This document shows, one piece after another, positions 10,697 through 48,699 of a stretch of 64,000 nt of DNA. Within the stretch, counting starts at the first letter, position 1; each line of letters begins with the position of its first letter. Made by a program: the position numbers and the translations under genes. The notes beneath the pieces are model-generated. The model was not told the origin of the DNA, did no database searches, and was given only the letters and a program-made list of their open reading frames with translations. Source of the stretch: Rhodospirillales bacterium (GTDB taxonomy: Bacteria > Pseudomonadota > Alphaproteobacteria > Bin95); NCBI GenBank assembly GCA_038143065.1, contig JAYQLI010000035.1:2336894-2400893 (forward strand). Direction: 5' to 3'.

Positions 10697-10717
10697 GTCG
10701 TCTTTCTCCCGACTTAC

Positions 10718-11529: not shown

Positions 11530-11573
11530 GAGTTTAACTCCTTCAATTAACGTAGTGAGGATTGGAAAAAACG

Positions 11574-12347: not shown

Positions 12348-12357
12348 TGGCCCCTCG

Positions 12358-12707: not shown

Positions 12708-12808
12708 AAAGACCCCTCAACCCATTCCTAATTGGTGGCTGAACATCAAACATCCGCCAACAACTAAGACTTGCAAAGACGAATAAGAATTATCCGACAG
12801 GCGGGCGG

Positions 12809-12838
12809 ACATTAGGCGGGCGGTCGAAGTAGTGTCAA
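12809..12838 (-). promoter_or_regulatory. Candidate sigma70 promoter of the atp F0 operon
   Basis: TTGACA-18 nt-TAATGT on the minus strand; the -10 box is flanked by two AGGCGGGCGG direct repeats (plus-strand spelling). Confidence 0.5.
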
Positions 12839-12903
12839 GGATAGGTGGGGGGCTAAAAGGCCCTTGCTGCAGCGTTGGTTTGTCGCATCCGATTGGTTCA
12901 GCA

Positions 12904-15900
12904 TCAGCCGGCTTCTCGCATTGCTGCAGCGTCATCAAAATTTACAGACACAAGCTGGGAAATGCCACGTTCCGGCATGGTTACGCCGTATAAGCGATCC
13001 ATACGAGCCATTGTCATTCTATGGTGTGTGACGACAAGGAAACGAGTGTGCCCTTCAGAAGCCATTTCTTCCAGAAGTGAGCACACCCGATCCACGTTCG
13101 AATCATCTAATGGCGCATCTACCTCATCAAGAACACAAATTGGGCTTGGGTTGCACCGGAAGGCTGCAAAAACAAGTGCCAAAGCAGTCAATGCACGTTC
13201 CCCACCTGAGAGGAGTGAGAGGGTTTGAAGACTCTTTCCTGGCGGGCTTGCCATTATTTCAAGGCCTGCTTCAAGGGGATCATCCGAGCCAACCAGCGCA
13301 AGGCGGGCACGACCACCGCCAAAAAGCCGCTGGAACAGTTGGCTGAACTCTTTATCTATCAAATCAAACGTTTGTCGAAGACGCTGGCGGGCTTCTCCTG
13401 AGAGGTCAGAAACGCCCCGTCTCAGTTTTGTTATTGCTTGAATGAGATCTTCACGCTCTCGTCGGATTGTTTCGGATTGTTCTTCGATCTCTTCTATTTC
13501 AGTTTCAGCCCTAAGGTTTACCCCACCCATATTTTCGCGTTCACGTCTAAGTCGCTCTACCTTTCGGTCTAGAGCGTCGAGATCACTGGGAGGATTTTCT
13601 GGATCAACGCCTGCTATTTTGGCGAGGTCTCCAGGTGTTGCATCTAATTTTTCGACTATGCGATCTAACAAGTTTTGAGAAAACACACGAGCTTGATCAG
13701 CCTTGGCGGCAGCAACTGCTCTAGCCTCTCGAGCACTGCTTGCTGCAGTGTCAGCAGTCTTTGCGGCTGCAGCAAGCCGCGAAGCTTCTGTCTCAGCGCT
13801 AGCTAAGGCATCTCCTAGGGCGTGACGTTTTGATTCAGCCGTCTCAAGGGCATCGAGGATACGAGCTCTGTCTGAATCCTCATTGTTATCACCCTCTTCT
13901 GCGGCAGCAATTGCAGACGCAGCCTCAGTTGCTCTAGAGGCTAGTGCTAAAAGAGCAGCTTCAGCGGCTGATATTGCATTTTTCCTCTCTGATTCTTCAT
14001 CTGCAACGGCCTTGAGGCGCCGAGCATTTTCGGCTTTAGCGGCTTCTAAGCGCTGTCTTTCGGCCTTCGCTTCTGACAAAGAGAGTTGGGCTGCGTTTGC
14101 TTCAGCGCGTGTGTTCTCTGCAATAGACCTTGCGGTATCTGGTTCGGCAATTTTATTTGCCAATCGTGACGCCTCATTTGACTCTGCCGAGGCAAGTTCC
14201 ACCTGTTGACGTGCATTGGCAACAGCTTCTGCCTTTGCCGCTATGTTAGCTGCATAAAGGGCCTTATCTCTCTCGGCATGTCCCGCAGCGTTTTGATGTT
14301 CGTCGAGCTTTTTTCTTGCAGCTTGTAGAGAGTTTTGGGCTTCCCTTTCGTCTGCCTCCGCTTTGGTTAGCTCTGCCCTTGCAACGTCGCTAACAGCGAG
14401 CGCTGCAACTGAAGCTTCGGAAGCCTTTTTTCTGTTAACTTCGGCGGTTTCTAAACGATTTTTTAAAGCTAGGCGGCGCGCAGCTGCTGTCTCTGCCCCC
14501 GGTCTTCGAACAAACCCATCCCAGCGCCAAAGACCTCCTTCAGCTGAGACTAACCGCTGGCCTTGGGCAAGAGAGGGCGCAAGGGCTTCTGCTGCTGCGG
14601 AACTTTCAACGAAACCAATTTGGCTTAGTCGCGGCAATAATTGGTCTGGAGCAGAAACAAAATCGCTAAGCGGCTGCGTGCCCGAGGGCAAATCAGCTTT
14701 AGATCTGCTTGCCGCTTCACCCCAAAAGACTCGGCAGTTGGATCAAGTGAAGCCTCTAAATCATCTCCCAGGGCAGCACCCAAAGCTGTCTCATACCCTT
14801 CTTTTGCTCTGATGTGGTCGAGCACTGGAGCGCGATCGGGAGTGGATTGATTCTCAAGTAGGCCAGAGAGAGTTTTGGTTTCTGCAGTAAGTGCTGCTTC
14901 TGCACTGGCGGCGGCAGCACGAGCTTCCTGAGCGCTCGCAAGGTTTGCGCGCAGTGTTTCGACAGCTTCTTTGAAACTTTCGGCAGCTTCAGAAATTTCA
15001 GCTAAAGCTTTTCGAGCTTTGTCAGCTTGTGCAGTTGCATCTTCCAGTGCATTGGCGGGTGGAGCCTTTTCTTCTGCTTCAGAGTAAGCTCTTTCTGCTA
15101 CCGTTAGAGTAGTGGAGACGCGCTCAAGTCTGGATTCAGCATCTCTTAAACGCTGAGATAATGTTCGGTTGTTGGCTTCTATTTCTGCGGCTTGATCTGC
15201 AGCCCTGTTAGCGGCCTCTGTTTTTTCGGCAACGATGGTCGTTGCTTCTTTGATCCGAGAGTCGAGCTCTTCTGGAGCGTCCAGATCAGCTGCTATCGCT
15301 AATAGGGCAGTTGTTTCCTCACTGAGCCGGATTAAGGCCCGTTCGGCAGATGTTTTTCTTTCTTCTTCCCGCTCTCTATCCCTACCAACATCTTCTAAGC
15401 GTATTTGAGCAGCGGCTCTGGCATCGGCCCTCCGCCGCCGCTCAGCGTCGATACGTTCTAACTCTAGCCTAAGACGCTGTTGAGTTGCTGCTGCTTCTGA
15501 TTCCAGTCTTCTCGCGGCGGGAAGGGCGGCATTTGCCTCGCTGGCAAGACGTTCAACTCGAGCAGCTTCAGCGGCCACTTGAGCGACAGCGGATTCTGCA
15601 ATTTTAGCGTTCTCAAAGGCTTGAGTTCTCTCTGTTTCGCTTAAGCGCCAGCGAGCTAAAAATGCTGCTGCATCCGCTGCTCGGATTAGATCGGAGGGCT
15701 TGCGAAAGCGATTAGCCTGCCTTGCTTGCTTCTGTAAGCTAGCTAACTGGTTGTCAAAACCAGTTAGGATATCTTCCAAACGTTCCAAATTAGTTTCGGC
15801 TGCATTTAGGCGAAGAGTAGCTTCATGTCTCCGAGCCCGAAGGCCCGCTACACCGGCAGCCTCTTCAAGAATAGAGCGGCGCTGTTCAGGTTTGGCGAGC

Positions 15901-16361
15901 ACAAACGCGCCAATTTGACCTTGGCTGACAATAGCAGCTGAGCGCGCGCCAGAAGCCAAATCAGCGAAAAGCGTTTGGACGTCACGCGCCCTCGTGTCTC
16001 GGCCGTTTACTCGATATGAGGATCCAGAACCTCTCTCTATCCGACGAGAAATTTCTAACTCTGCCTGCCCAATCCATGGTGCGGGAAACGCACCGTCTGG
16101 ACCAGTTAAGCCTATTGTGACTTCCGCGTGATTTCGAGAAGGACGTCCACCCCCGCCGGAGAAGATGACATCATCCATGCCATCTCCACGCAACTGCTTT
16201 GCCGATGTTTCGCCCATTGCCCAGCGCAAAGCTTCAACAACATTAGATTTTCCGCATCCGTTTGGACCTACCACGCCGGTTAGGCCCGGCGAAATAGCAA
16301 CCTCAACCGGATCCACAAACGATTTAAATCCTGTTACTTTGAGCCGGACGATGTTCGCCAT
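12904..16361 (-). CDS. smc: Chromosome partition protein Smc (split by an indel at ~14700-14730)
   Basis: N-terminal GFKSF and Walker A GPNGCGKSN; long coiled coils; C-terminal LSGGE and LDEVDAPLD. Confidence 0.96.
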
Positions 16362-17180: not shown

Positions 17181-17255
17181 GCCGGGTTAGCACAGTGGTA
17201 GTGCAGCGGTTTTGTAAACCGAAGGTCGGGGGTTCAAATCCCTCACCCGGCACCA
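17181..17255 (+). tRNA. tRNA-Thr (anticodon TGT)
   Basis: GCCGGGT/ACCCGGC acceptor stem, GCAC/GTGC D-stem, anticodon loop TTTGTAA, GGTTCAAATCC T-arm, encoded CCA. Confidence 0.97.
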
Positions 17256-19311: not shown

Positions 19312-20948
19312 TTACTCGGCTGCAGCTGCAGAGCGCGCAGGCTCGAGATGGAAGCCTCGATAGTTATCCGCAACTACTTCTTCACAAATACGGCGGTAAG
19401 TTCCTACTCCGGCAATATAAGGCATAAAGAGGCGCGGTTTGCCTGGAATGTTGGCGCCCGTGTACCAAGAATTGGCCTGAGGAAAGAGTGTTTTGTTTGC
19501 AACTTCTTGGACATGGTCAACCCATTGATCTTCAGCCGATATTTCTGGTTCGATAAGCTCAAAGTTCTCAGCTCGCATGTGCTGAATAGTGCTTACTACA
19601 AGATCCACATGCTGCTCTATCGATGTAAGCATGTTGCTTTTTACAGATGGGCTGCCAGGGCCAGTGATCATAAAAAGATTGGGAAAGCCTTCGCTCATAA
19701 CGCCTAAGTAAGTCCTAGGGCCTGCTTTCCATTTTTCTTTAAGGGCCAATTTATTGCGACCACGTATATCAATATTGAACAAGGTGCCTGTCATTGCATC
19801 AAAACCGGTTGCAAAAACGATGGTATCAAATTCGTAAACTTTGCCGTCAACACTCAGTCCGTTATCAGTCACGTGTTCGATAGGATTTTGACTAATGTCA
19901 ATAAGATTGACGTTATCTCTGTTGTAAGTTTCGTAGTAACCACTATCGACACAAATACGTTTTGTACCGATAGGATGGGATGCCGGCGCTAGGATTTCGG
20001 CTGTTTTTTTATCTTCAACGGTTTCGTATATTTTACTTCTGACAAACTCTGACATCATATCGTTTGCAGATTGGCTTACCAAAATATCATTAAAGGCGGC
20101 TAAGAAGCCTGATCCCCATTTTTCCATTGGGCCTCCAGTATTGCTTGTCGTTCTTCGGTGTTTACTTCTAAGGCAGATTTTTCGCCCCTAGGTCTGGTAT
20201 TCCCTTGTTGGGAATAACGCATCAATTCCCGCTTATCGGCGTAATCCTCTTTCCACGACCGCGAATAGTCAGCAGTCATCGGCGCGTTCCGCGTTGGGAT
20301 TGAGAAGTTTGCGATCCGTTGAAAAACAGTAAGATGACCGGCTTCTTTGGCAATTTCAGGTATCGCTTGAATACCGGAGGAGCCAGTTCCAACTACCGCT
20401 ACGCGTTTGCCATTAAAGTCAACTTTTTCATGAGGCCATGAACCAGTGTGATATGTTTCGCCCTTAAATTGAGTAAGCCCTTCAATTTCTGGTACCTGTG
20501 CTGTTGAGATGCACCCAGTAGCCATTATGACAAACTTGGATGTTATTGTTTGCCCCCTGTTAGTTTTTGCACTCCAAAGACGGCTTACGGGATCAAAGTG
20601 CGCAGATTTTACCTCTGTCTCAAATTCAATATGGCGCTTTACATCGAACCGATCGGCAACATGATTTGCATACCGCAGGATATCTGGTTGAGCGGAGTAC
20701 TTTTCAGGCCACTCCCACTCCTGCTGTAAGGCCTCGTCAAAACCATATGAGTATTCCATGCTCTCAACGTCACAGCGTGCACCAGGATAACGGTTCCAAT
20801 ACCAAGTGCCACCGACACCATCACCTCGTTCGTAGCAGCGAACTGACATTCCTGCAGCAACACATCGATGCACCAGATAGATGCCTGAAAACCCAGCTCC
20901 TACAATTATAACGTCAAAATGAGGTGCAACGGACGTTTGATGGGACAT
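19312..20948 (-). CDS. Type I Baeyer-Villiger monooxygenase (split by an indel at ~20115)
   Basis: GAGFSG, GGTWYWNRYPGARCD, BVMO fingerprint FKGETYHTGSWP, GTGSSG, ATGFDAMTG, SWYTGANIPGKP. Confidence 0.93.
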
Positions 20949-21055
20949 CTTTTGTCTCCCTAATATCACCGCGCTTCAGCAAGCAATGTGAGTACCTTAG
21001 AAGTAATCTGACAGTTCACTCTAAACCATGCACTTTGTGCGGGTCATCTGTTTTA

Positions 21056-22513: not shown

Positions 22514-23281
22514 TTAACCTTTCTTATTTTTGGCTTTTGTCGCTTCTTGAGTGAGGATCGGTAAACTTTCAGTCATGGTGTGTATCCCTAGGGCGGCTAT
22601 CAGCTGCAGTATTTCCATTAATTCTTCTTGGCTTGCCCCATAACCGATCGCGTTTCTGATATGTAGACGCAGCCCTGGTTCATAGAGATGAGTTGTAGAT
22701 GCATCGATCGCTATATAGACGAATTCGCGGACCTTTGGCTCGAGCACGTTGGTTCGCCAAGGTGCGCCAGAGAAGTTTAAGTATGCCTCAAAGAACTCAG
22801 GAGCCATTGCCAGCATGTCCTCCTGTCTTTCGGACCAATATCCACGCACCTTAATATATTCATCTTTGATCTTTTGACGTCGTTCATCAATTTTGGGTCT
22901 ATTCAGCTTCCCAGCGGCTTGTAACTCTTCAATTAGTACAGGCATGCCGAGGCTACAGCTATGAATGCCAAGTACGCTGGTCATTGCTAGAACTTCAAAA
23001 ACTTCTTCTTCTGATGCGCCATGCCGAAGAGCATTCTGTATATGGACACGAGTACCCCTATTATAGAGGTGAGTCGTCGACGCATCTGCAGCAATGTACA
23101 TAAACTCTTTAACTTTTGGCTCTAATGTTCCGTGCTTCCAAGGAGCCGACGAAAAGTCAGTATATGCCTTAAAAAAGTCAGGGTTTAATCGAAGCATTTC
23201 CTCCCAGATGTCCATCCAGTAACCACGGTTTTTAATGAAATCATCCTTGATTGCCTGGCGGTGTGGGTCCAGAGAACTCAT
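22514..23281 (-). CDS. Tandem-domain carboxymuconolactone decarboxylase family protein
   Basis: Two internally repeated halves, each RGYW..P.FF.AY..FS.APW....LEPKV.EF.YIA.DASTTHLY..G.R.HI.NA...GAS. Confidence 0.85.
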   Translation of the reverse strand: MSSLDPHRQAIKDDFIKNRGYWMDIWEEMLRLNPDFFKAYTDFSSAPWKHGTLEPKVKEFMYIAADASTTHLYNRGTRVHIQNALRHGASEEEVFEVLAMTSVLGIHSCSLGMPVLIEELQAAGKLNRPKIDERRQKIKDEYIKVRGYWSERQEDMLAMAPEFFEAYLNFSGAPWRTNVLEPKVREFVYIAIDASTTHLYEPGLRLHIRNAIGYGASQEELMEILQLIAALGIHTMTESLPILTQEATKAKNKKG

Positions 23282-23413
23282 GTTCGGTCTCCTTATTAGT
23301 TCTGTTCTTCGACAAAATAATAATCTCAAGGGCTCATCGTGAGCTATCTGCCGATGTTGACAAGTGGTTCTCTGATCCGAACCCTTGATTGAAATCGCCA
23401 GCAGGAGCCTCTT

Positions 23414-25033
23414 ATGGCAGGAATCACATACGACTATGTTATTGTAGGTGCTGGAGCAGCTGGTTGTGTCTTGGCCAACCGCTTAAGCCAAGATGGGAAG
23501 GCGACGATATGTGTTTTAGAGGCGGGAAGGAATGATAAACATCCATTAATCCATATCCCCGCAGGCTTCGTTAAGACGCTCTATGGCGATCGTTTTATTT
23601 GGCGGTTTGAAACGGAAGAGGGTCCAGGTCTAGACGGACGTAAGGTAATGATGCCGCAAGGTAAGGTCGTTGGCGGCTCTTCATCTGTTAATGGAATGGT
23701 ATATAACCGCGGCCAGCGCGCCGACTTTGATCAGTGGGCCCAAATGGGCAACCGTGGTTGGGGTTTTGATGACCTGCTTCCATACTTCAATCGATCCGAG
23801 ACCCGCATTACATCAGACCAAGCAGAAAAACGTGGCGAAGCAGGAGAGTTACCAGTCACTGACCATGATTGGATTAATCCTCTTACTGAAGCGTTCTTCG
23901 ATGCCGCTACTGCATGCGGTGTCCCGAGGTCGAGGGACTACAATTCTGGATTTCAATTCGGATCAGGTTATTTCCAGCGCTATATTCACAATCGTCAGAG
24001 AGTAAGTTCAGCTAAGGCCTTTCTTAAGCCAGCGCTTAACCGTCCAAATGTTCGCCTTGAGACTCATGCCAACGCCATTGCAATTGAATTTCAGGGTAAG
24101 CGAGCGTCTGGTGTAAAATGGGTTAACCGCGCTGGCCAAGAACAGTTGATTCAGGCAGGGCGTGAGGTGATCTTATCTGCTGGCGCTGCCAATACGCCAA
24201 AGCTTCTTCAAATTTCGGGAGTTGGTGCACCAGGTCAATTGTCGGATATTGGTGTTTCAGTTCATCATTCTCTCGCTGGTGTTGGAGAGAACCTCCGAGA
24301 CCATTACACCGCCCGCATGACGGCGAGAGCAAAGAATGTCAAAACGATCAATGAATACGCTAGATGGCCACGTCTTCCGTTGGAGGTTGTAAAGTGGGCA
24401 GTTGGAAGGCCAAGCGTTCTTGCTCTCTCTCCAACTATCGCATTCGTTCACGGCAAGTCACACCCTCAAATGGAAGATGCGGATCTCCGTATATTATTTA
24501 CTCCGGGTAGTTATCAGGATGGCAAAGTTTACGTTCTAGATGAGTATCCGGGTTTGACGTGTGGAGCCGCCCAACCAAGGCCGGAAAGCACAGGTTTTGT
24601 GCGTGCTCGTTCGTCTGATCCTCAAGCACCCCCTATCATTCAACCTAATTATTTAACAGCAGAGGAAGATCAGAGGATAACGATAGCCGGTTTACGTCTC
24701 GCTCGAAAAATCCTTAATCGCCCAGAAATGTCTAAATATTTTGACTTTGAAACTTTGCCTGGAGCGGATGTGCAATCTGATGATGAGCTTCTTGATTTTG
24801 CTAAACGTAAGGGCAACACGGGGTACCATCTTGTAGGCACGGCAAAAATGGGTCCAGCAACAGATAGTCGTGCTGTCGTTGATGACCAGCTACGCGTCCA
24901 TGGGCTTCAGGCTTTACGCATCATCGATGCATCCGTGATGCCAATGTTGCCTTCGGCAAATACATTTGCTTCAACTATTGCAATTGCTGAAAAAGGGGCT
25001 GACCTGATACAGGGCAAGCTATCAGCCGAATAA
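23414..25033 (+). CDS. GMC family oxidoreductase (choline/alcohol dehydrogenase-like)
   Basis: DYVIVGAGAAGCVLANRLS, GGSSSVNGMVYNRG, YHLVGTAKMG and LRIIDASVMP. Confidence 0.93.
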   Translation: MAGITYDYVIVGAGAAGCVLANRLSQDGKATICVLEAGRNDKHPLIHIPAGFVKTLYGDRFIWRFETEEGPGLDGRKVMMPQGKVVGGSSSVNGMVYNRGQRADFDQWAQMGNRGWGFDDLLPYFNRSETRITSDQAEKRGEAGELPVTDHDWINPLTEAFFDAATACGVPRSRDYNSGFQFGSGYFQRYIHNRQRVSSAKAFLKPALNRPNVRLETHANAIAIEFQGKRASGVKWVNRAGQEQLIQAGREVILSAGAANTPKLLQISGVGAPGQLSDIGVSVHHSLAGVGENLRDHYTARMTARAKNVKTINEYARWPRLPLEVVKWAVGRPSVLALSPTIAFVHGKSHPQMEDADLRILFTPGSYQDGKVYVLDEYPGLTCGAAQPRPESTGFVRARSSDPQAPPIIQPNYLTAEEDQRITIAGLRLARKILNRPEMSKYFDFETLPGADVQSDDELLDFAKRKGNTGYHLVGTAKMGPATDSRAVVDDQLRVHGLQALRIIDASVMPMLPSANTFASTIAIAEKGADLIQGKLSAE

Positions 25034-26170
25034 GCCGGATTTCCGCAGGGCCTCAGGTTCTCCTTCAGGGAGCCAGTGTTTCAGAGCTTCGACTGAATTT
25101 TCAGGAGAAGGTGCCTTTGCCGCGGTAGGCATAGGAGATGAATGGTTACTAAAGCGGGGTGCAGGTGCAGGCTGCACTATACCGTCTACCTCAACGAAGG
25201 TTTTGCGACTAGCGAGATGAGGGTGATCTGGCGCTTCGTCCGGCCCTAATACTGGCGCAAAGCAGACATCCGTGCCCTCTAATTCTTCTTGCCATTGAGC
25301 GCGTGTTTTAGTCTTAAATATGACGCCTAAACGAGCCTTAACTTCGTCCCATGAAGACCTGTCCCACTGTTCTGGAAGGCTCGTAGGATTAATTCCTAAC
25401 CGTTCTAAAAGTTCAGTGTGAAATTTAGCTTCTATTGGGGCAAGTGATACCCATTTCCCGTCAGAGCATTCATAAACATCATAAAAATAGGCACCTGAGT
25501 CATTCATATTTTCTCCACGTTGATCAGTCATAAACCCTGAAGCAAAATGGCCAAAATAACTTGTCATCAGGGAGGCTGCTCCGTCCACCATTGCGGCGTC
25601 AACGACTTGACCTTTTCTGGTTTTTCCAGCTTCGAACAATGCGCACATAACACCGAATGCGAGATACATCGTCCCTCCACCAAAATCCCCAACCAAGTTA
25701 AGTGGAGGTGTTGGAGGTCCGCCCTTGCGGCCGATGGCGTGCAACACTCCAGCTAGAGCTATGTAATTCAGATCATGTCCAGCTGCATGCGCAATTGGTC
25801 CCTCCTGGCCCCATCCTGTCATTCGGCCAAAAACCAGCTTTGGGTTTCGGGCTAGACATACTTCAGGGCCAAGACCAAGGCGTTCCATAACCCCTGGTCT
25901 AAATCCCTCGATCACAGCATCCGCGGTATCGATTAAACGAAGTGCAATATCTACAGCGTTTTTTTGCTTAAGGTCTATTGCGATAGCCGGTCGGCTGCGC
26001 AGCAAAAGATCATATTTTCGCTCTTGGGGGGCTCCTAGGCCGCTAGGTTCTAAGCGATCGATTCTAATGACTTCAGCACCCAGATCAGCCAGCAACATTG
26101 CGCACATAGGTGCGGGTCCTATTCCAGCCATTTCTACAACTTTGAGGCCATTAAGTGGTCCGGAGGGCAT
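25022..26170 (-). CDS. CaiB/BaiF family protein, alpha-methylacyl-CoA racemase-like
   Basis: EMAGIGPAPMCAMLLADLGA, AGHDLNYI and NLVGDFGGG (His/Asp pair as in AMACR/Mcr). Confidence 0.9.
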   Translation of the reverse strand: MPSGPLNGLKVVEMAGIGPAPMCAMLLADLGAEVIRIDRLEPSGLGAPQERKYDLLLRSRPAIAIDLKQKNAVDIALRLIDTADAVIEGFRPGVMERLGLGPEVCLARNPKLVFGRMTGWGQEGPIAHAAGHDLNYIALAGVLHAIGRKGGPPTPPLNLVGDFGGGTMYLAFGVMCALFEAGKTRKGQVVDAAMVDGAASLMTSYFGHFASGFMTDQRGENMNDSGAYFYDVYECSDGKWVSLAPIEAKFHTELLERLGINPTSLPEQWDRSSWDEVKARLGVIFKTKTRAQWQEELEGTDVCFAPVLGPDEAPDHPHLASRKTFVEVDGIVQPAPAPRFSNHSSPMPTAAKAPSPENSVEALKHWLPEGEPEALRKSGLFG

Positions 26171-26175
26171 TAAAC

Positions 26176-26787
26176 TTATCCTTTTGGTAAAGGAGGGATG
26201 GGAATAGGGCAGACCCCGTTCGCATTGCCGTCTTCGACCTCCGCCAGAGTATCGGTATCTACATCTGTTAGGAAGGTGGCGTGGAAACGGTTCACCATAT
26301 TGCTAAGCCCAACAGTTAGGCAGAGATCTATGATTTGCTGGTCACTGAAATGCCGACTTAGATCGCCGTAGGTTTCGTCATCGATTGGAGCCATCGTAGT
26401 TGCTTTACGCGCATATCGCACAATCGCAGCCTCTTCAGGGGTATAAATGCCGGCTGGCAGAGGATCATCCAGTAGGTGTGTCATCTGTTCTTCCGTCAGT
26501 CCTAGCACCCGACCGAGCGCTGTGTGTGTCGGAATTCAGTAAAAGCAATTATTAACTGTGGTGGCTGTGAGGTATGCGAGCTCACCGTGGTGAGGCTCTA
26601 GCGTTGAGTCTTGCCGATAGACGGTTGTTAGAAAATTTGAGAATGCAACGAGAGCCTCCGGTCGATTAGCCATAGCCCGATGTATATTGATCATTCGGCC
26701 ACGAGCAGCACCCGCCTCCTGAAGTGCAGTACGAGCATTTGGATCAAGGTCAGGATCATTTTCATCTAAAATAGGGATGCGTGCCAT
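26176..26787 (-). CDS. AhpD/CMD-family protein, probable selenoprotein (in-frame UGA at 26536-26538 giving CxxU)
   Basis: ORFs 26536-26787 and 26176-26508 are in the same frame. Read-through gives ...TVNNCFY-U-IPTHTALGRVLGLTEEQ..., matching the AhpD CxxCxxxH motif; 203 aa in total. Confidence 0.8.
26504..26521 (-). promoter_or_regulatory. Candidate bacterial SECIS element
   Basis: mRNA UGA-AUUCCGACACACAC-AGCGCUC-GGUC-GGGUGCU: 7-bp stem (two G-U pairs), G-led apical loop starting 22 nt after the UGA. Confidence 0.6.
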
Positions 26788-26876
26788 TTTTACTCCTCAA
26801 GGTGGGTTAGGACAGTTCATGAATATCAGTATCGGGCTCATGAAGTTGAAAAGATTTTGGATTTACGGGTATTTTT

Positions 26877-28007
26877 TTATCCCTGTCCCAGAGTCTGTAG
26901 GCGCTCTAATGCATCTGCAAGTTCGGTTTGCATTTCTAGCATGACCTGGCGGACGCTCGTCTCCTGTTTCATTGACCCGACAACCTGTCCAGCTGGGAAG
27001 GAATATAGATCTGATCTTTCAGCTCGGATGACGCGAGCGGTAACTTCGTTAAACAGCACTCCTTGCAATGGAGGATCGAGATATTCTGGAGCGTCAGGAG
27101 CTTCCCATATCTCTGAAAGTCGGCTTTTTAACATTCTCACGGTTTTGCCAGTTCGACAGCGGCGTCGCACAGCATCTTCAGCCTCTGCCGCAAAATAAGC
27201 CTGTTTTTCGAACGGTGTTAGCTCGCTTTCTCGCGTGCCTAGCCAGACCGTTCCACACCAAACACCTTCAGCTCCCATAGCAAGGGCAGCAGCTATCTGA
27301 GATCCGCGAGCGAAGCCCCCCGCAGCTATCACGGGGATTTCATTCTTAACTGCATCGATGACATCTGGAACTAGAACTAGCGTTGATATTGCTCCGGTAT
27401 GGCCGCCAGCTTCTGTTCCCTGAGCAACGACGAAATCTACTCCAGCAGCACACTGTCTGCTTGCGTGTTTTGGTTTGCCACACATGGCGCCTATTACGAT
27501 CCCACGGTGTCGTAAATCTCTGACTACATCCTCAGGCGGTGCACCAAGTGCACTTACAACTACGCGAATTTTAGGGTGGTGTACTACGACATCTAGGAGC
27601 CGCCTTGCTCCTTCTGGTGTCATCCCACCACGACCGGAGGCTATTTCATCATGGACACGAGTTTTTTCTTCCTGCGGTAGTTCTGGAACGCCTTCTGCGT
27701 CCAAGAAATCTTTCATGAATGCCTTGTGGGTATCAGGAATGAGATCGTTCAGATCTTTCTTACCGAATGCAGCCTCCGCATCACGGTCATATTTTACAGG
27801 GATAATTACGTCGACACCGTATGGAAGGTCACCAACCTGTTCATCTATCCATGCAAGCTCAACTTCGAGTTGCTCGGGAGAGAAAGTTGATGCTCCAAGC
27901 ACACCAAAGCCTCCAGCTTTGGTTACCTCGGCAACAACATTGCGACAGTGAGAGAAGGCAAAAATGGGGCTCTGGAAGCCTAGGTGTTTTTGGAGACGGT
28001 TTTGCAT
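26877..28007 (-). CDS. Nitronate monooxygenase / FabK-like flavoprotein
   Basis: PIFAFSHCRNVVAEVTKAGGFGVLG, AQGTEAGGHTG and IAAGG..G.QIAAALAMGAEGVWCGT. Confidence 0.88.
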   Translation of the reverse strand: MQNRLQKHLGFQSPIFAFSHCRNVVAEVTKAGGFGVLGASTFSPEQLEVELAWIDEQVGDLPYGVDVIIPVKYDRDAEAAFGKKDLNDLIPDTHKAFMKDFLDAEGVPELPQEEKTRVHDEIASGRGGMTPEGARRLLDVVVHHPKIRVVVSALGAPPEDVVRDLRHRGIVIGAMCGKPKHASRQCAAGVDFVVAQGTEAGGHTGAISTLVLVPDVIDAVKNEIPVIAAGGFARGSQIAAALAMGAEGVWCGTVWLGTRESELTPFEKQAYFAAEAEDAVRRRCRTGKTVRMLKSRLSEIWEAPDAPEYLDPPLQGVLFNEVTARVIRAERSDLYSFPAGQVVGSMKQETSVRQVMLEMQTELADALERLQTLGQG

Positions 28008-28065
28008 TTTTATTCTTCCCGGTGAGCGGTAGTGCAACCTTATCTAACTATATTTTACAATAGTA

Positions 28066-30012
28066 CTAAGAGCGTCGAAGGTGGCTCAACTCCTCCACAG
28101 ATTCTGGATTAATTAACGAGCTTAAATCACCGGTCTCGAGGCCAAGGTATGCTGCTCTTACAACTCGCCGCATGATTTTCATATTTCGTGTTTTGGGAAG
28201 GTCTGAAACAAAAATAACTTCACTCGGTCGAAAGGGGCGTCCAAGCCCGCTAGCTACAACTTCCGCCAATTCTTCTTTCAGTGCATCGTTAGCGACAACA
28301 TTCGTTCGGACCTGGCATACGCAAACAATAGTCGTTCCCTTGACTGGATGCGGTGCGCCCACAGCTGCAGTTTCGACTAGCTTTTGTGTCCCCATCAAAA
28401 GTGCTTCGATTTCTGCGGGTCCGGTGCGTTTTCCAGCAATTTTTAAGGTATCGTCGGAGCGACCATGTACCATCCATGTGCCGTCTGATGCCCTACTTGC
28501 AAAATCGCCGTGCACCCACATTCCTGGAATAATATTCCAGTAGGTTTGTAGGTATCTTTCATTGTCATTCCAAAGGCCTCGCGTCAGTCCAATGGAGGGG
28601 CGTCGCATGACCAGTTCACCGACTTCGCCAGGACTGACTGGTTTACCAGACTCATCCACTACGTCGGCTCCGACTCCTGGCACTGGGCCTGAAAAAGCGC
28701 ATGGCTTGAGAGGATGAATAACTGTGGTAGCAACGATGCCTCCTACTTCAGTTCCTCCGGAATAATTGAGAATAGGTAGCTTTCCTTTCCCTACTGCATT
28801 GAAGAGCCAGAGCCATGAAGGTTCATCCCAAGCTTCGCCAGTAGAGGCAAAAATACGAAGGCTGGAGAGATCATGACGGTTCAGTTGTTCGGGTCCGTTT
28901 ACCATCAAGGTTCGCACGATGGTTGGAGCAATGCCAAGCCAAGAGACTTTGTGGTCGGCAATTAGTCTCCAGTATCGATCTGCTTCTGGGTAGTTGGGAG
29001 CACCCTCGATTAAAACTACTGTTCCGCCAAGCTGGAAGCCTCCGTAGACAAGAATTGGGCCAACAAGCCAGCCCATATCTGACATCCACATAAGTCTGTC
29101 ATCCGGCTTGAAATCCATACAAATGGATAGATCAAGGGCGAGCTTGGCGGGAAAGCCGCAATGACTATGCACAACACCTTTAGGCTTTCCTGTAGTCCCT
29201 GAAGTGTAAATGAGAAGAAAAGGGCTGTCGGCATCCACTTCCGCGGTTGCCACCTCGTCAGGCATGTCTCTCGTCAAGTCAGCCCACCAGTGGTCACGTC
29301 CCTCGGTCCAGTCGTGAGGTGCTTCCCAATGCTTTGTAACTATAACGTGCTGAAGGTTGGGCGCTTGATCTGCTATCTCATCTACAATTGCCTTAGCTGG
29401 AACAGCACGCCCTCTACGTGGAGAGCCATCAACCGTAATGATGGCTTTGGCTTTACTGTCATTCAGGCGGGCAAGCAGAGCGTCACCACCAAATCCGGAA
29501 AACATAGGGAGTACAATACCGCCAATCTTAGCGACGGCTAAAAGTGTTATTGCAGCTTCCGGTATATTTGGAAGATACATTGCGATCACGTCACCAGATC
29601 CCAGGCCAAGCTTGCGAAGACCCCCAGCAAGGTGATTTGTCTGTGTTCGCACCTCAGCGTACGTTAACTGCTTTGTGGTCCCGTCTTCTCCTTCCCAATC
29701 GATCGCTATCTTTCTGTCGGTTGGCGTATTTTTCCATTTATCAAGACAGTTGAGCGCTACGTTAGTGGTTCCGCCCTTACACCATTGAGCAAATGCGGGC
29801 CCCATAGTTTCATCAACAATTTGATCCGGGTACTTGAAGAAACGAAGATCTATAAAATCGAAAAGCTTTTGATGAAATTCTTCGGGGTTTTCATCCGACC
29901 AGGAAACAAGACTTTTGTAATCAGCTACACTGCACTTTCGAATGAATGCAGTCAGATTGGCGTTGTCTATTAAATCTTTCGAAGGGCTCCATACGAACTC
30001 ATCGCCATTCAT
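28066..30012 (-). CDS. AMP-forming acyl-CoA synthetase (acetate/propionate-CoA ligase-like)
   Basis: YTSGTTGKPKG, NYSGGTE, HGD..GRSDDTLKIAGKR and LPKTRNMKIMRR. Confidence 0.92.
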   Translation of the reverse strand: MNGDEFVWSPSKDLIDNANLTAFIRKCSVADYKSLVSWSDENPEEFHQKLFDFIDLRFFKYPDQIVDETMGPAFAQWCKGGTTNVALNCLDKWKNTPTDRKIAIDWEGEDGTTKQLTYAEVRTQTNHLAGGLRKLGLGSGDVIAMYLPNIPEAAITLLAVAKIGGIVLPMFSGFGGDALLARLNDSKAKAIITVDGSPRRGRAVPAKAIVDEIADQAPNLQHVIVTKHWEAPHDWTEGRDHWWADLTRDMPDEVATAEVDADSPFLLIYTSGTTGKPKGVVHSHCGFPAKLALDLSICMDFKPDDRLMWMSDMGWLVGPILVYGGFQLGGTVVLIEGAPNYPEADRYWRLIADHKVSWLGIAPTIVRTLMVNGPEQLNRHDLSSLRIFASTGEAWDEPSWLWLFNAVGKGKLPILNYSGGTEVGGIVATTVIHPLKPCAFSGPVPGVGADVVDESGKPVSPGEVGELVMRRPSIGLTRGLWNDNERYLQTYWNIIPGMWVHGDFASRASDGTWMVHGRSDDTLKIAGKRTGPAEIEALLMGTQKLVETAAVGAPHPVKGTTIVCVCQVRTNVVANDALKEELAEVVASGLGRPFRPSEVIFVSDLPKTRNMKIMRRVVRAAYLGLETGDLSSLINPESVEELSHLRRS

Positions 30013-30034
30013 GCAGAACCCTCCTGAAGATAAT

Positions 30035-30472
30035 TCAGTCTCGCGTTGGCACGTCAGGTACCCAGAGATATCCATCTGGGTCGAGAATATATACTTCGCG
30101 CAGTCCGTGTTTTTTGTCTATTGCGCCAGTAAGGATCCGATCTCCGCGCATACGGGCACATCTCTCCGCTTCATCAGGGTCTAGGCCATGTATTCGGAGT
30201 TCAATCCCTGAGCCACGGGAGCCGTCGGAGTTAAGACAATTTATCAACGGATGCTTTTCATAGGTATGGTCGGCATGAAGCATCCACTCCATATCTTGGC
30301 GCCGTAGCACCGCAAAATCGGGATCCGCGTATAATACCTCAGCCTGGAGGACGGATTTAGCGAATTCAACAGAGACGGCGATTTCTTTCACCAACAGATT
30401 AATGCCAAAGCCCTGTAATGCTCGCCCATACTCGCTTGCGGGTATCCATGGATCACCCACTCGCTTCTTCAT
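30035..30472 (-). CDS. VOC/glyoxalase family protein
   Basis: GINLLV..WMLHADHTY..GIELR..HGLREVYILDPDGYLWVP. Confidence 0.8.
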   Translation of the reverse strand: MKKRVGDPWIPASEYGRALQGFGINLLVKEIAVSVEFAKSVLQAEVLYADPDFAVLRRQDMEWMLHADHTYEKHPLINCLNSDGSRGSGIELRIHGLDPDEAERCARMRGDRILTGAIDKKHGLREVYILDPDGYLWVPDVPTRD

Positions 30473-31148: not shown

Positions 31149-32671
31149 TCAGTTTCCTTTGTTAAAATCGAAAAGCCCAAGACCAGTTGGCGAATCGGGC
31201 ATGATAGCTTGCTTGGTTACTTCTGGATTTAGGGCGGTGACACCCCGTCCGTCCAGTCCTGACAGATTGTGTATAGCGGTTAAGAAACGGTCAATTTCTG
31301 GTTGTGTTAGCAGGTGCCCTGCAAGGCTTGTAAATTTGCGCGAATAGTCCTCAAGTTTCCAAGGTTTTGTTCCGTTTGGATGGGCATCTGCAATACTTTT
31401 TTCAAAAACAAGCGTTGCACCATCAGTCATCTTTAGTTCAAGTCGCCCGCCGTATGCCCGCATTGCGGGGTCTTCGGCGTGGTAGCGACGGTCCCATTCG
31501 GGATCTGCTGCGGTTTCTATTTTCTGCCAAAGATCAATGGTGCTAGGTCTGCTGGCGCGCTCGGCGGAGTAGCTATCTATGTGGTGCCAAGAGCCATCCT
31601 CAAGTGCCACTGCAAGGATATACATAATTGAATGATCAAGGGTTTCCCGGCTTGCTTTTGGGTCCATTTTTTGCGGGTCATTTGCACCAGTGCCTATGAC
31701 AAAATGGGTGTGGTCAGAAGTGTAAAGGACAGCCTTAGAAATCCTACAAATATCAACTTTGCTCCGAACCTCAAAGGCCAGGTCTATGATAGCTTGCGCC
31801 TGATATTCTGCTGAGTGGGCCTTAGGAAAACTCTCTAAAATATTATTTGCGGCTTCGCCTGGTCGAGGCAATGTGATTGCGTATGTTGCTTCTTTACCCG
31901 CCAACATCCACGGAATGACAGAATCCTCTCCCTCATAAATTGGACTCGGGGCACCTTCTCCTCGCATTGCCCTATCAACCGCTTCAATGGCCGTTTTACC
32001 AGCTTGTGCAGGCGCAAAAGCCTTCCAAGAAGAGATTTGCCCTTTGCGTGACTGTCGAGTTGAAAAGAGAGGTGAACAGCTTGGTTTACTGCCTGAAAAA
32101 TAATCTCGGCGGGTAGTTTTAATAGGGCTCCCAGGCCTGCAGCAATTGCGGGAGCTAGATGAGCTACGTGGTCTTTTTTGTAAGAATGTAAATCTATAGC
32201 CTTAACGAGTGCGATGTGGATTTCATACGAAACCGCAATAGCCTGAGCGAGACTAGTCCCTGATTGCTCCGTTTGTTGAGCGACAGCCAGAAGTGGAGCT
32301 ATGCAGTCGCTTGGGTGTGCAAAGTCGGCGGCGAGAAATGTATCGTTGAAATCCAATTCGCGAATAGCCACGCTATTTGCAAAGCCCGCCCATTCGCAAT
32401 CTACTGTGATGGAGTTTGGTAAACCAAATAAAGGGGCTCCTCCACTGCGCTGATGAGCTAGCGCCATCGCTCTGGCAGATGCCACTGGTCCTCTATTTAT
32501 TGCAGCGAGTGCAACAGCAAAACTATCTAAAAGGCGACACTGGATCATCTCCAGGGTCAACGATTCTGGTGGAAGAGCTGCTGTGCTGAAAGTGGCTATC
32601 CTGCCAGCAAGCTGCTCACGCCAAGGCGGCGTTTCGGCAGATGACAGGCTACGAATGCTGTATCTTGGCAT
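31149..32671 (-). CDS. prpD: MmgE/PrpD family 2-methylcitrate dehydratase (split by an indel at ~32065)
   Basis: RELDFNDTFLAADFAHPSD, KDHVAHL, RQSRKGQISSWKAFAPA, ASRETLDHSIMYI and ADAHPNG. Confidence 0.85.
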
Positions 32672-34868: not shown

Positions 34869-36225
34869 ATGAACAAATTGCATTCCCCAACTGCCATCAT
34901 TGCCCAGTTTATTGCGGGCTTCAAAAATAGTGATCTGCCGATAACAACACGAAAGTCCATACGTCTAGCAATTCTAGATACCTTGGTTGCGGGTAGGTAT
35001 GGAATGCCAGAGCCATGGACGCGGATGGTACGCAGTTATGCGGAGGAACACCAGCCAGCTTCGGTTGAGGGCCTTGCGCGTTTTTGGGGAGATGTGAAGG
35101 CTAAAGTTCGACCTGCGGATGCTGCGCTTGTGAATGGTGTTGCCGCCCATGCATTTGAGTTAGATGATTTTGCAGCAAAATTACACCCTGGTGCTGTGGT
35201 TCTCCCCGCGGCGCTAGCAGTTGCTGAAGCACGTGGCTCCTCCCTAGAGGATTTGGAGACTGCAACAGCACTAGGCTATGAAATAATGATCCGAATTAGT
35301 CTAGCGCTTGACCCCAATATGGCCCGACTAAGGGGGTGGCATTTAACCGGAGTTGTAGGCCCATTTGGGTCAGCCATAGCATGTGCAAAACTCATGGGTC
35401 TAAATGAAGAGCAGACACTGTGGGCATTGGGTCTTGCGGGCACTCAGGGAGCCGGTCTTTTCGCTTTTAATGCGGATGGAGCGATGTCAAAACGATTGCA
35501 CCCTGGAAAGGCAGCGCAATCTGGTGTTCTCGCCGCCGAGCTTGCTATCCGTGGCTTCACAGGTCCTTCAACAGTATTGGAGGTGGAAGATGGTGGTTTC
35601 TTGCGGGCATTTTCTGACCATTGGTCAGTAAATCCAATATTGGACGAGCTTGGGTCTCGATGGCGATCTGAGGAGGTTAATTTTAAACCCTATGCGTGTT
35701 GCGGTAGTGTTCATGCTTATGTAGATGCGGCAAAGCAAATTCGAGCAGAGCTGGGTGGTGCCCCCAAGCAGACATGTTAGTGCGGGCCGGCGTTGCTAAG
35801 GTTGTCGATGTGCAGTGTGGTTATGACTATATCCCAGGTACCGTCTTAAATTCACAAATGAGCTTACGGTATTGTTTGGCAGTTGCGCTCCTTGACGGAG
35901 AGGCTCTACCAGCTCAATTCCGAGAGGAACGTCTGGCTGATCCAGCTATAATAGATCTCGCTGGACGTATAGAACTTGTACCTGATGCTGAGCTTGACGG
36001 CTTGTACCCAACTCACTACGCCGGCTGGGCTGAAGTAGGGAATGTGAGAAGCTTCATAAAAGATCCTGCTGGATCAATAGCAAATCCAAACCGGGAAACT
36101 GCGCTTCGCGAAAAAGCTCATTCTCTTTTTAAGGATCTGGATACAAAAGTCAGGCATCTGAGCTTGAGGCTATCGTCGATTTAGGTGGTGGCTCCGCCAA
36201 TGCACTCCTGGAAGCAATTATTTGA
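34869..36225 (+). CDS. Second MmgE/PrpD family protein (indels at ~35765 and ~36135)
   Basis: AALVNGVAAHAFELDD..LHPGAVV, SKRLHPGKAA, FKPYACCGSVH and QMSLRY. Confidence 0.82.
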
Positions 36226-37576: not shown

Positions 37577-40038
37577 TCATAAATCCATCATGCCTTGATT
37601 GTCATGATACATTGCTTCAGCAATTAGGATTTCAGCCATTTTTGCTTCCGCGTCTGCGAGGAGCGTGTCTTCTACGTCACCATAAACACTCTCCTTACCA
37701 ACCTCGAGTAAAACTGGAACGGCCAAAGGAGATACTCGATCCAAACGACGATGGATAATTCTATCCTTTGCTCTAGCCAACATATCGCTAAGCCGCCGTA
37801 TATCGGTAAGCCCCCTTGCAGCGTCGCGACGTGTGGCGCGCAGAAGAATGTGGTTTGGCTCATAACGGCGAAGCACATCGTATATGAGATCGGAGTTTAC
37901 TGTTATCTGTCTGCCGTTTTTCTCTTGCCCTGGGTGACGCTTTTCAATAAGGCCGGCAATCACAGCCACTTGGCGAAATGTGCGCTTAAGAAGGCTTGAC
38001 TCTGCCATCCATTCTTCCAGCTCATCACCTAGGATGTCTTCGTCAAAAAGATGGTCTAGCTTGGTAGGCTCGCGCAAACTCCATACTGCAATAACGTAGT
38101 CTGTTGCGCAGAAACCGAGAGGTCCAAGACCTAATCGCGCCATTCGCCGCGTCAACAACATTCCGAGTGTTTGGTGGGCATTTCTTCCTTCGAAGCAGTA
38201 AGCAACTAAGTAGTAACGACCTCCTCTGGGGAAAGTCTCGACAAGCAGCCCATCTTGTCCGGGGAGCTGGGACCGCCAACGTTGCATTTTTAGCCAATCT
38301 GTTACGTCTTTAGGAAAGTCTTTCCATTGGCATGGATCTGAGAGAATTTTGCGCACTCTTTGGCAAGATCTGTTGTTAGCGGAAGTCTTCCCCCAGCAAA
38401 TGCTGGAACCTTTGGTTCCCCCTTACCTCCTAACTTCGCCATCAGTGTAGTTTCTCGGATACCAATAAATTCCAGAAGTCGTCCTGAGAAAACAAATGTG
38501 TCTCCTGGTTCGAGCCCATTGGCAAAGTATTCTTCAACCTCGCCAATCTGACGCCCGTTGACTCTTACCTTTAGCAATGGCGCCTCGACGATTACACCTA
38601 CGTTCATTCGCCACTGCCGTGCAATTCGTTGTTCGGTGACCCGCCAAAGTCCATCGGTGCCTTGGGATAATCGATGGTAACGCTCATATGCACTCAATGC
38701 ATAACCACCGGTTGCAGCAAAGTGGAGTACAGAATCAAAGTCCTCTCGTGAGAGTTCCGCATAAGGCATTGCTTTTTTGACTTCGCGATACACCGCTTCT
38801 GCATCAATAGGGGATGAGCACGCTATGCCGACAAGATGCTGTGCTAGTACATCAAGCCCTCCCGGAATCGGGACGTTACCATCAAGCTCACCATCCTCTG
38901 CTGCCTGAATGGCCGCTTTGCATTCTAGTAATTCAAACCTATTCGCTGGGCAAAGTACGGCTCGACTAGCTTCATCAAGCTGATGGTTGGATCTTCCTAT
39001 TCTTTGCAAGAGACGAGCTACACCCTTTGGTGCCCCTACTTGTACGACTAGGTCGACGTCACCCCAATCTATGCCCAAATCTAGGGAGGATGTAGCTATT
39101 ACCGCGCGCAGCTTGCCCATAGCCATTGCCGCTTCGACTTTTCGGCGTTGCTCTACGTTAAGGCTACCGTGGTGAAGGCCAATTGCTAGATTCTCATCAT
39201 TAAGCTGCCATATTGCTTGAAAGCAGAGCTCAGCTTGAGCGCGCGTATTCACAAAAACGATCGCAGAGCGTGCGGTTTTAATTAGAGAGTAAACCTCGGG
39301 CATTATATGTAGAGCCATGTGTCCGGACCAAGGTGTTCTTGCTTTAGACTCAGCAATATTGACTGAGGGGACTGCTCCAGTTGCTCCTTGAATTATCAAA
39401 ATATCTTCCTCTTCACTGGCAGTTTTTGAGAGCCAACGAGCAAGATCCTTTGGATATTTAATAGTTGCTGACAGACCAACGCGGCGATGGTTAGGCGAGA
39501 GGGTGTTCAGCCGCGATAGGCTAAGGGCAAGCATTTCCCCCCGTTTGTTGTCGGTCAGTGCGTGAAGTTCATCAATTATTACTGTCTTTAATGTTTGAAA
39601 TATTTTATCTGCGTCAGCATAGGAAAGCAGTAACGCAAGTGACTCAGGTGTAGTAAGCAGAATATGCGGGGTGTTTCGTCTTTGGCGCTGGCGTTTGGTT
39701 TGTGGAGTATCGCCTGTTCGAGTCTCTATAGAAATTCCTAGTTCCATTTCTGCTGCAGGTATTTCTAAATTTCGAGCGACGTCTACCGATAATGCTTTTA
39801 ATGGCGAGATATAAAGAGTGTGAAGGCCTGAAAACGGAACTGTATCGTGGTTCGCCAATTCAATTAAGCTCGGCAGGAAGCCTGCCAATGTTTTGCCGCC
39901 ACCTGTTGGGGCAATCAGAAGGGTGGAATTTCCAGATGCAGCCGCTGCAACCAGGGCTAGTTGGTGAGCATGCGGTTTCCAATGACGCTTTTTAAACCAA
40001 GCATCAAATTTTATAGGCAGAGATGGCGAGTCACTCAT
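37577..40038 (-). CDS. Ligase-associated DNA damage response DEXH-box (Lhr-core) helicase (indel at ~38358)
   Basis: APTGGGKT, YISPLKAL, DELH, SSLDLGIDWGDVD, QRIGRSNH and FEGRNAHQTLG. Confidence 0.92.
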
Positions 40039-40094
40039 GTGGTACAATATAGAAGTCCTGTATAGCAGATCGACTGCTTCTTTTGGAAATTGAA

Positions 40095-48695: not shown

Positions 48696-48699
48696 AAAG

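Follow-up and report, generated by a model that had tools for sequence, protein, structure and literature searches.

Introduction

AhpD-like proteins in which selenocysteine (Sec, U) takes the place of the second Cys of a CxxC redox motif have been described from marine metagenomes. In the Sargasso Sea data set, 27 AhpD-like CxxU selenoproteins (COG2128) were reported together with a CMD-domain CxxU family of four sequences (PMC1088965), and Table 2 of the Global Ocean Sampling (GOS) study gives 299 sequences for 'AhpD-like 1', the fourth most abundant family in that table, and 70 for 'AhpD-like 2' (PMC2398784). A 2026 review ties an AhpD-like protein to TIGR01926, a CMD-like protein to PF02627 and an AhpD-related protein to NF041238, all of them of the CxxU type (PMC13188914), and BSepDB holds a page for the AhpD-like family (PMC13326102). 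In these descriptions the marine proteins are known from sequence analysis alone, and a literature search for experimental work on AhpD-like CxxU selenoproteins gave bioinformatic papers only. Here we describe a gene of this kind in a 64,000-nucleotide stretch of contig JAYQLI010000035.1 from a Rhodospirillales bacterium (assembly GCA_038143065.1), hereafter called the window. The gene, located at 26787..26176 on the minus strand, is split in the databases into two open reading frames (ORFs). We put at roughly 0.88 the probability that it is one gene encoding an AhpD-like thiol/selenol oxidoreductase, with the UGA at codon 84 decoded as Sec.

On the Cys side of the superfamily, proton-relay residues have been described for PA0269 (Glu36/Cys48/Tyr50/Cys51/His55) and for the AhpD of M. 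tuberculosis (Glu118/Cys130/His132/Cys133/His137) (PMC3141380). The window protein resembles both in its predicted all-helical AhpD fold and in having an identical proton-relay spacing, and differs from them in carrying Sec in place of the second Cys. It is also longer, with 203 residues compared to the 145 of PA0269, a length resembling that of the 'peroxidase-related' proteins of about 190 residues. Furthermore, the window gene has no gene for an AhpC partner nearby, and its activity is a prediction.

A single reading frame with one TGA at the redox motif

An initial annotation, made from the window sequence, had proposed a hidden selenoprotein of the AhpD/CMD family, with a CxxU motif and a hairpin resembling a selenocysteine insertion sequence (SECIS), encoded by two ORFs joined in frame through one TGA and nine sense codons. 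The ORF list and the sequence bear out this arrangement. Between the TGA and the GTG that opens the downstream ORF lie 27 nt, or nine sense codons (IPTHTALGR), and the frame read with TGA as U encodes 203 residues including ...V-N-N-C-F-Y-U-I-P-T-H-T-A-L-G-R... (Table 1). The single TGA in this 203-codon frame coincides, as had been proposed, with the second Cys of the AhpD CxxCxxxH motif, here C81-F-Y-U84-I-P-T-H88. The selenoprotein proposal itself is supported by a conserved single frame, a conserved UGA, homologues with Cys at the site, a conserved SECIS-like hairpin and one complete fold.

When the primary structure of the read-through protein was compared with family models, it matched the Pfam CMD domain PF02627 with 39.7 bits (gathering cut-off 23) over residues 43-126, with the TGA inside the match. 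On the other hand, it reached the cut-off of no NCBIfam model: TIGR01926 'peroxidase-related enzyme' gave 59.7 bits (curated cut-off 81.8), NF053654 GroundWater_YciW 'YciW-related (seleno)protein' 34.4 bits (cut-off 310) and NF041238 AhpD_rel_CFYUT 'alkylhydroperoxidase-related (seleno)protein' 25.9 bits (cut-off 175). Judged by the curated threshold, the protein is a relative of TIGR01926 rather than a member. A scan of the window for other ORF pairs joined by TGA gave no further candidate with a redox motif; the remaining pairs were same-frame adjacent genes or antisense ORFs.

Conservation of the TGA codon across four phyla

We collected related loci from contigs of one genome per species and used the best 80 of 121 confirmed relatives, giving 81 sequences with the window. 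TGA was present at the homologous codon in all 80 related loci, thus in 81 of 81 sequences, and neither TGC nor TGT occurred in any of them. The loci cover Pseudomonadota, Chloroflexota, Actinomycetota and Vulcanimicrobiota. Most belong to Alphaproteobacteria (Rhodospirillales, Hyphomicrobiaceae, Acetobacteraceae, Reyranella), and one to Burkholderiaceae; those outside Pseudomonadota come from Chloroflexota (Ktedonobacteraceae, Tepidiformaceae), Actinomycetota (including Rubrobacteraceae and Acidimicrobiales) and one member of Vulcanimicrobiota. Going by record titles, most of the relatives are soil or freshwater members of Alphaproteobacteria, Chloroflexota and Actinomycetota. A Rhodospirillales metagenome-assembled genome (L001), whose protein is 96% identical to that of the window, retains the TGA, as do two isolates, Rhodopila globiformis DSM 161 (L033) and Rhodospirillales URHD0017 (L048). 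On the Hyphomicrobiaceae chromosome OZ244119.1, two paralogues about 3.9 Mb apart (L010, L012) both carry the TGA and the hairpin. In Acetobacteraceae UBA8620 (L067, 121-666) the gene is interrupted by a further in-frame stop and has lost part of its N-terminal third by deletion, and this copy may be decaying or reflect an assembly error.

These data bear on the caveat, raised in the initial annotation, that the TGA might be an error (TGC>TGA), and more widely on the possibility that sequencing, assembly or a recent nonsense mutation produced it in an ordinary Cys-type AhpD-like gene, which would make the locus an artefact or a pseudogene. The concern was reasonable in itself, because the window contains many frameshifted genes. 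Genes for an SMC protein, an FMO-like monooxygenase, two PrpD/MmgE-like proteins, an Lhr helicase, the glycine dehydrogenase GcvP (in four pieces) and nuoM are split (12904-16361, 19312-20969, 31149-32671, 34869-36184, 37577-40047, 42265-45187 and 58299-59818), appearing as overlapping or adjacent ORFs most of which resemble frameshifts. In nuoJ (55401-56018) the in-frame stop at 55713-55715 is a TAG and not a TGA, and in nuoD (48693-49877) the N-terminal stretch of about 95 residues has been lost from the frame, the upstream stretch being out of frame; neither gene is a Sec candidate. Either the assembly is rich in indels or the genome is rich in pseudogenes. Nevertheless, an error would have to recur at this one codon in all 80 independent assemblies, which represent four phyla and include the 96%-identical relative and the two isolates, and it would not account for the conservation of the hairpin downstream. 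Since all 81 sequences carry TGA, the fear of an error at 26536-26538 is unfounded, and this explanation, to which we give almost no weight, is refuted for practical purposes.

Translation continues past the TGA

We then considered whether the two ORFs are separate polypeptides of a naturally split gene, with the TGA acting as a true stop. Gene callers do report two ORFs, a cluster of 34 N-terminal proteins of 83 residues exists, and in the window a GTG start is found nine codons past the TGA. A word-indexed protein search, which gave 386 relatives, also returned predominantly half proteins: among the best 120, 115 covered 43-59% of the query and corresponded to C-terminal halves of 111-155 residues.

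Divergence along the frame, however, speaks for translation across the TGA. Mean pairwise divergence at codon positions 1/2/3 was 0.211/0.164/0.517 for codons -20 to -1 and 0.225/0.176/0.52 for codons +16 to +95, and for codons +1 to +5, which precede the restart codon listed for the window (GTG), it was 0.028/0.083/0.598, the third position being the most divergent in all three regions. In the region of the hairpin (codons +6 to +12) the values were 0.201/0.153/0.297. Of the 80 genes, the codons directly after the TGA specify Ile in 79 (with three synonymous codons in use), Pro in 80 (four), Thr in 79 (four) and His in 80 (two). Very strongly constrained amino acids combined with free synonymous change at +1 to +5 are the signature of translated sequence. 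In addition, the break falls invariably on the second redox residue, both halves are needed to complete the predicted fold, in which helix 84-94 starts at the TGA codon, and the hairpin loop and its spacing resemble a SECIS and not a ribosome-binding site. Taking these points together, we regard two separate polypeptides as very unlikely.

Homologues with Cys at the site and database records

The initial annotation had asked for orthologues with TGA or Cys at the site; related loci with TGA and homologous proteins with Cys were found. In addition to the TGA of the related loci, an exhaustive profile-free search against 1.84 billion representatives gave 2172 matches at E <= 0.001. Among the best 150 of these, 92 span the motif and 53 of the 92 carry CxxC. 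Cys occupies the Sec position in P0122 (194 residues, 49% identity) and P0123 (179 residues, 45%). Also among the best 150, 12 N-terminal fragments terminate exactly in C-x-Y.

The remaining five of the best 120 relatives in the word-indexed search were longer (64-100% coverage), and all of them had Trp at the site. These proteins (P0002, P0003, P0004, P0005 and P0008) are full-length forms predicted by the Joint Genome Institute (JGI) on short contigs, evidently called under a code in which TGA specifies Trp; records of this kind mask selenoproteins as Trp proteins.

As had been anticipated, annotation pipelines split the gene, and public records list its halves as separate proteins. The two fragments are named 'hypothetical protein' or 'alkylhydroperoxidase family enzyme', and the window and all 80 related genomes have the gene annotated either in two pieces or under the label 'hypothetical protein'.

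A SECIS-like hairpin downstream of the TGA

The mRNA immediately 3' of the UGA can form a hairpin whose loop begins with G at the 22nd nucleotide after the UGA (a spacing of 21 nt), as described in the initial annotation. The hairpin alone has a calculated energy of -8.4 kcal/mol and a z of -2.76, and 3 of 200 dinucleotide shuffles did as well; for the 51 nt that begin at the UGA the values are -16.6 kcal/mol and z = -2.18. The folding check suggested earlier places the 7-bp stem and its GGUC loop in the minimum free energy (MFE) structure of these 51 nt. The bacterial SECIS (bSECIS) model given in a figure legend of the review mentioned above (PMC13188914, Fig. 2) specifies a loop of 3-9 nt, an upper stem of 4-16 bp, a G within the first two loop positions, a distance of 16-37 nt from the UGA and an MFE of -7.5 kcal/mol or lower. 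The window hairpin satisfies the model on each count: its loop has 4 nt and opens with GG, its stem has 7 bp, its distance from the UGA is 21 nt and its energy is -8.4 kcal/mol. Like the SECIS of E. coli fdhF, it lies directly 3' of the UGA and displays a GGUC apical tetraloop. The loop of fdhF, however, begins at nucleotide 22 counted from the U of UGA and that of the window at nucleotide 25, one codon further, and the stem sequences are unrelated.

More decisive than these energies is the comparison with relatives, for which conservation of the element was examined in the 81-sequence alignment. Of the eight bases of CTCGGTCG, a segment that covers the loop together with the pairs closing it, seven are invariant, and the eighth, a stem-closing C, deviates in one sequence (L080). 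The codons involved are used with a strong bias: GGT encodes Gly +8 in 80 of 80 genes but makes up 14.5% of the Gly codons in the remainder of the same genes, and the corresponding figures are 79 of 80 and 34.4% for CTC at Leu +7, and 70 of 80 and 34.2% for CGG at Arg +9. Such conservation of the loop and closing bases is not explained by the protein and, like the drop in third-position divergence to 0.297 over codons +6 to +12, points to a constraint at the RNA level. A GGUC, GGUCG or CGGUC apical loop appeared at the same site in the MFE structure of 65 of the 81 sequences. Under a stricter definition, a hairpin at the site was found in 64 of 80 genes, compared to 1640 of 16000 (10.25%) shuffles of synonymous codons within the genes.

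Across the relatives the stem occurs in two registers. The loop is GGUC in 20 sequences and in three more with a bulge, and GGUCG in 33 and in 25 more with a bulged U; compared with the GGUC loop of fdhF, 58 of 81 sequences thus have GGUCG and 28 of 81 a bulged stem base. At least 5 bp under one of these loops can be formed in 78 of 81 sequences. In the GGUC class (A3, n=20) the upper helix was 95.7% paired, with double changes at four of seven pairs, and in the GGUCG class (A4, n=33) it was 93.9% paired, with double changes at two of eight, percentages that are inflated in so far as sequences were assigned to a class by their best stem. Covariation scores were 0.303 for A3 (shuffled, 0.158) and 0.232 for A4 (shuffled, 0.183), and in each class none of 500 shuffles reached the observed value. 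When the partner strand was slid by one to three columns, pairing fell to 34-55%. Based on these comparisons, the SECIS-like element is conserved among the orthologues beyond what coding requires.

Predicted fold and active site

AlphaFold2, supplied with an alignment of 41 full-length read-through sequences, predicted the protein as one complete, all-helical AhpD-like domain, with a predicted local distance difference test score (pLDDT) of 93.0 and a predicted template modelling score (pTM) of 0.90. The best Foldseek matches in the PDB were 3c1l, 2pfx, 2prr and 2oyo, with query-normalised template modelling (TM) scores of 0.70-0.75, a probability of 1.00 and 178-189 aligned columns, and the AhpD proteins of D. 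radiodurans (6k40, within the same TM range) and S. pneumoniae (6e8l) were matched as well. By sequence, the best PDB matches were Atu0492 (2gmy, E 4e-12) and PA0269 (2ijc, 2o4d, E 1e-8). The four best structural matches, 'uncharacterized peroxidase-related proteins' of the TIGR01926 type, share the length class and the position of CxxC with the window protein. They are only 18-24% identical to it and have Cys instead of Sec, and their function is likewise unassigned. The debrominase Bmp8 of the CMD family (6ohi, 6ohj) has the same fold (TM 0.64-0.67, sequence E 3.8e-5) and its catalytic Cys in the same region. With 16% identity, however, this is a weak match at the superfamily level, and nothing in the window gene points to dehalogenation.

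Residues E69, C81, Y83, position 84 and H88 are invariant in all 41 sequences, and their spacing is that of the AhpD proton relay in PA0269 and M. tuberculosis AhpD. From this array we infer a thiol/selenol oxidoreductase that would cycle through a C81-U84 selenenyl-sulfide. The C-terminal tail around C193 was modelled with less confidence (block pLDDT 65-78). Among the solved AhpD-like structures that were matched, none shows an equivalent of this conserved Cys-Pro-rich tail, G-x-C-P-[IL]-P-x-P. A role of C193 as a resolving or relay thiol would be speculation.

The Sec machinery and decoding of the UGA

In order to locate genes for Sec synthesis and insertion, E. coli SelA, SelB and SelD were searched against the 80 loci and the window (1.30 Mb). 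The Vulcanimicrobiota locus L072 contains selB, selA and selD, in this order, directly after the AhpD-like gene, which ends at 10633 (all within 10001-15272); selB and selA lie on the strand opposite to the Sec gene. The selD gene of this locus has an in-frame TGA of its own in a G-G-U-x-x-K context and a frame break further on. In a second locus (L060), selD is found 2.3 kb from the gene (244.6 bits, cut-off 125). Some carriers thus demonstrably own Sec machinery, and in one of them, L072, the gene is physically linked to it. ARAGORN detected no tRNA-Sec in any of the 80 related loci, and an Rfam scan of L072 and L060 at the gathering thresholds gave no match. A selC gene nested in selB has been described for Rhizobiales and for a small number of Rhodospirillales groups (PMC8124441).

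The UGA could also be read without selenium, either by a near-cognate tRNA for Cys or Trp or through reassignment of the codon (tables 4/25), the hairpin merely stimulating read-through. The five JGI proteins with Trp at the site, from contigs called under a TGA=Trp code, would fit this explanation, and Sec machinery in the source genome is presumed. Taking into account that TGA is the ordinary terminator of 39 of the 80 genes themselves and of 26 of the 64 window ORFs, however, the codon is not reassigned. Moreover, the site aligns with a catalytic Cys and not with Trp, the loop matches base for base the one that SelB binds in E. coli fdhF, and selB, selA and selD stand beside the gene in L072. 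We therefore consider decoding without selenium improbable, and take Sec insertion as the reading to be weighed below.

Points that weigh against a selenoprotein, and a proposed mechanism

A number of observations weigh against Sec at codon 84. The Cys residues of P0122 and P0123 are known as protein sequence, not as DNA, and the window is rich in errors or pseudogenes, with numerous frameshifted genes. Queries with E. coli SelA, SelB and SelD found no selA, selB or selD within the 64-kb window, nor did ARAGORN find a tRNA-Sec there, the only tRNA being a tRNA-Thr at 17181-17255. As for the hairpin, it is absent from the MFE structure of the 51 nt in 16 of 81 sequences, and RNAalifold, applied to the ungapped alignment of the 81 sequences, did not recover it and gave only a trivial 4-bp helix. 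The latter is explained by the two registers of the stem, and pairing was for this reason analysed per sequence and per class. The 51-nt region was not more stable than its synonymous-codon shuffles (mean z -0.02, with 4 of 80 genes in the best 5%). The fdhF element of E. coli was likewise no more stable than dinucleotide shuffles (z +0.10), indicating that stability is not the right criterion. The lower helix is poorly kept, with 73.0% (A3) and 58.8% (A4) of cells paired, and was therefore not counted as part of the element. Finally, in an Rfam scan of positions 25000-28000 at E <= 10, no family matched the hairpin; the two matches obtained, to a snoRNA and a miRNA, lie elsewhere in the region and are attributed to chance.

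Assuming Sec insertion in this organism, which we infer by reference to the established bacterial pathway, a mechanism can be proposed. As the ribosome nears the UGA, the mRNA just past it would fold into the 7-bp hairpin with the GGUC loop. SelB-GTP carrying Sec-tRNA(Sec) would bind this loop and place Sec in the A site, and translation would then proceed into the second half of the gene, yielding a product with the AhpD active-site array E69/C81/Y83/U84/H88. By analogy with AhpD, the selenolate of U84 may attack an oxidised partner, for example the sulfenate form of a peroxiredoxin, or else a peroxide or disulfide. The adduct would be resolved by C81, giving a selenenyl-sulfide, and some reductant of the cell would then reduce this again. 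Both this cycle and its substrate are predictions.

Relationship to described AhpD-like selenoproteins

The gene is a further AhpD-like CxxU selenoprotein, of a family and with a motif that have been in print since 2005. As far as the published descriptions go, on which the comparison with marine AhpD-like 1 and 2 was made rather than sequence to sequence, it shares with the marine-metagenome proteins the superfamily, a CxxU motif in which the second position is Sec, and a SECIS hairpin that follows closely on the UGA. Its relatives differ from the marine proteins in their mostly soil and freshwater hosts and in a conserved C-terminal Cys-Pro tail, and it stands apart from the AhpD-like selenoproteins tied to TIGR01926 by its score below the cut-off of that model. 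The gene possibly belongs to a distinct AhpD-like subfamily. TGA is present in all 80 species-representative genomes, and no Cys form exceeds 49% identity. A tentative and rather doubtful extension would be a distinct clade in which Sec is near-universal, lacking a curated model and therefore split in databases. On this reading the near-identity of the SECIS nucleotides across four phyla would suggest horizontal transfer together with the recoding signal, and C193 would serve as a third redox residue, shuttling electrons to or from C81/U84.

General knowledge of selenoproteins is unchanged by this gene, the family and CxxU being known since 2005 and the function being as uncharacterised as before. 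The main value lies in annotation, where many split records would be mended by a model built for this gene and flagged for Sec. The results also place an AhpD-like enzyme that depends on Sec in soil and freshwater Alphaproteobacteria, Chloroflexota, Actinomycetota and Vulcanimicrobiota, and a small, well-conserved SECIS with a GGUC loop of the E. coli type could suit expression tests.

Genomic neighbourhood

Table 1. Coordinates of the selenoprotein gene, its elements, neighbouring genes and the Sec genes of locus L072
Feature	Sequence	Position	Strand	Remarks
Whole gene, AhpD/CMD family, predicted Sec at codon 84	Window	26176..26787	-	203 codons plus TAA stop (26176-26178)
Upstream ORF of the pair	Window	26536..26787	-	83 residues, ends ...NNCFY followed by TGA
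Downstream ORF of the pair, same frame	Window	26176..26508	-	110 residues, GTG start
In-frame TGA, read as Sec (U84)	Window	26536..26538	-	TGA in 81/81 sequences
Redox motif C81-F-Y83-U84-I-P-T-H88	Window	26524..26547	-	C81, Y83, position 84 and H88 invariant in 41/41 aligned full-length proteins
E69, candidate proton-relay Glu, 12 residues before C81	Window	26581..26583	-	Invariant in alignment; putative role
C193 in C-terminal tail G-x-C-P-[IL]-P-x-P	Window	26209..26211	-	Tail Cys motif in 77/81 sequences
SECIS-like upper hairpin, 7-bp stem, apical loop GGUC (26511-26514)	Window	26504..26521	-	AGCGCUC-GGUC-GGGUGCU; part of MFE fold
Possible lower helix, 26530-26534 with 26491-26495, enclosing the hairpin	Window	26491..26534	-	Window MFE fold; weakly supported
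AMP-binding ligase	Window	28066-30075	-	First of four same-strand genes
Nitronate monooxygenase (NMO) family	Window	26877..28037	-	PF03060, E 2.9e-45; 89 nt upstream of selenoprotein gene
CoA-transferase family III	Window	25022..26170	-	PF02515, E 1e-80; start 5 nt past stop of selenoprotein gene
selB	L072	10650-12548	-	TIGR00475, 285.3 bits, cut-off 242.25
selA	L072	12557-13984	-	TIGR00474, 508.5 bits, cut-off 267.9
selD	L072	from 14191	+	TIGR00476, 234.3 bits, cut-off 125

The gene is located in a run of four minus-strand genes, for the AMP-binding ligase, the NMO-family protein, the selenoprotein and the CoA-transferase. As the gaps between them are 28, 89 and 5 nt, co-transcription is plausible, and the CoA-transferase gene is probably co-transcribed with the selenoprotein gene. 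The initial annotation had pictured an enzyme serving or protecting the surrounding oxygenase-rich catabolic cluster. This was not supported. Immediate neighbours in the 80 loci were taken as the longest ORF within 1.5 kb, a rule that may select spurious reading frames where DNA is GC-rich, and clustering them gave 124 clusters, of which 104 had a single member and the largest comprised four loci. With no conserved neighbour found across the 80 loci, a role in the local catabolic cluster is without comparative support. The NMO-family gene, present within 3 kb in 3 of 80 loci, is not a conserved neighbour.

A second CMD-family protein is encoded in the window at 22514-23329 on the minus strand. 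It has 271 residues in a tandem double domain, with D-A-S-T-T-H at the motif position; having no Cys in the motif, it was ruled out as a redox protein of the AhpD type, and it is unrelated to the selenoprotein gene.

Adjacency to the CoA-transferase gene is common only to L001 and L002, the two closest relatives. In L001, about 100 nt separate the selenoprotein gene from the AMP-binding ligase gene upstream of it, whereas in the window the NMO-family gene is found between the two, so that even very close relatives differ in the array.

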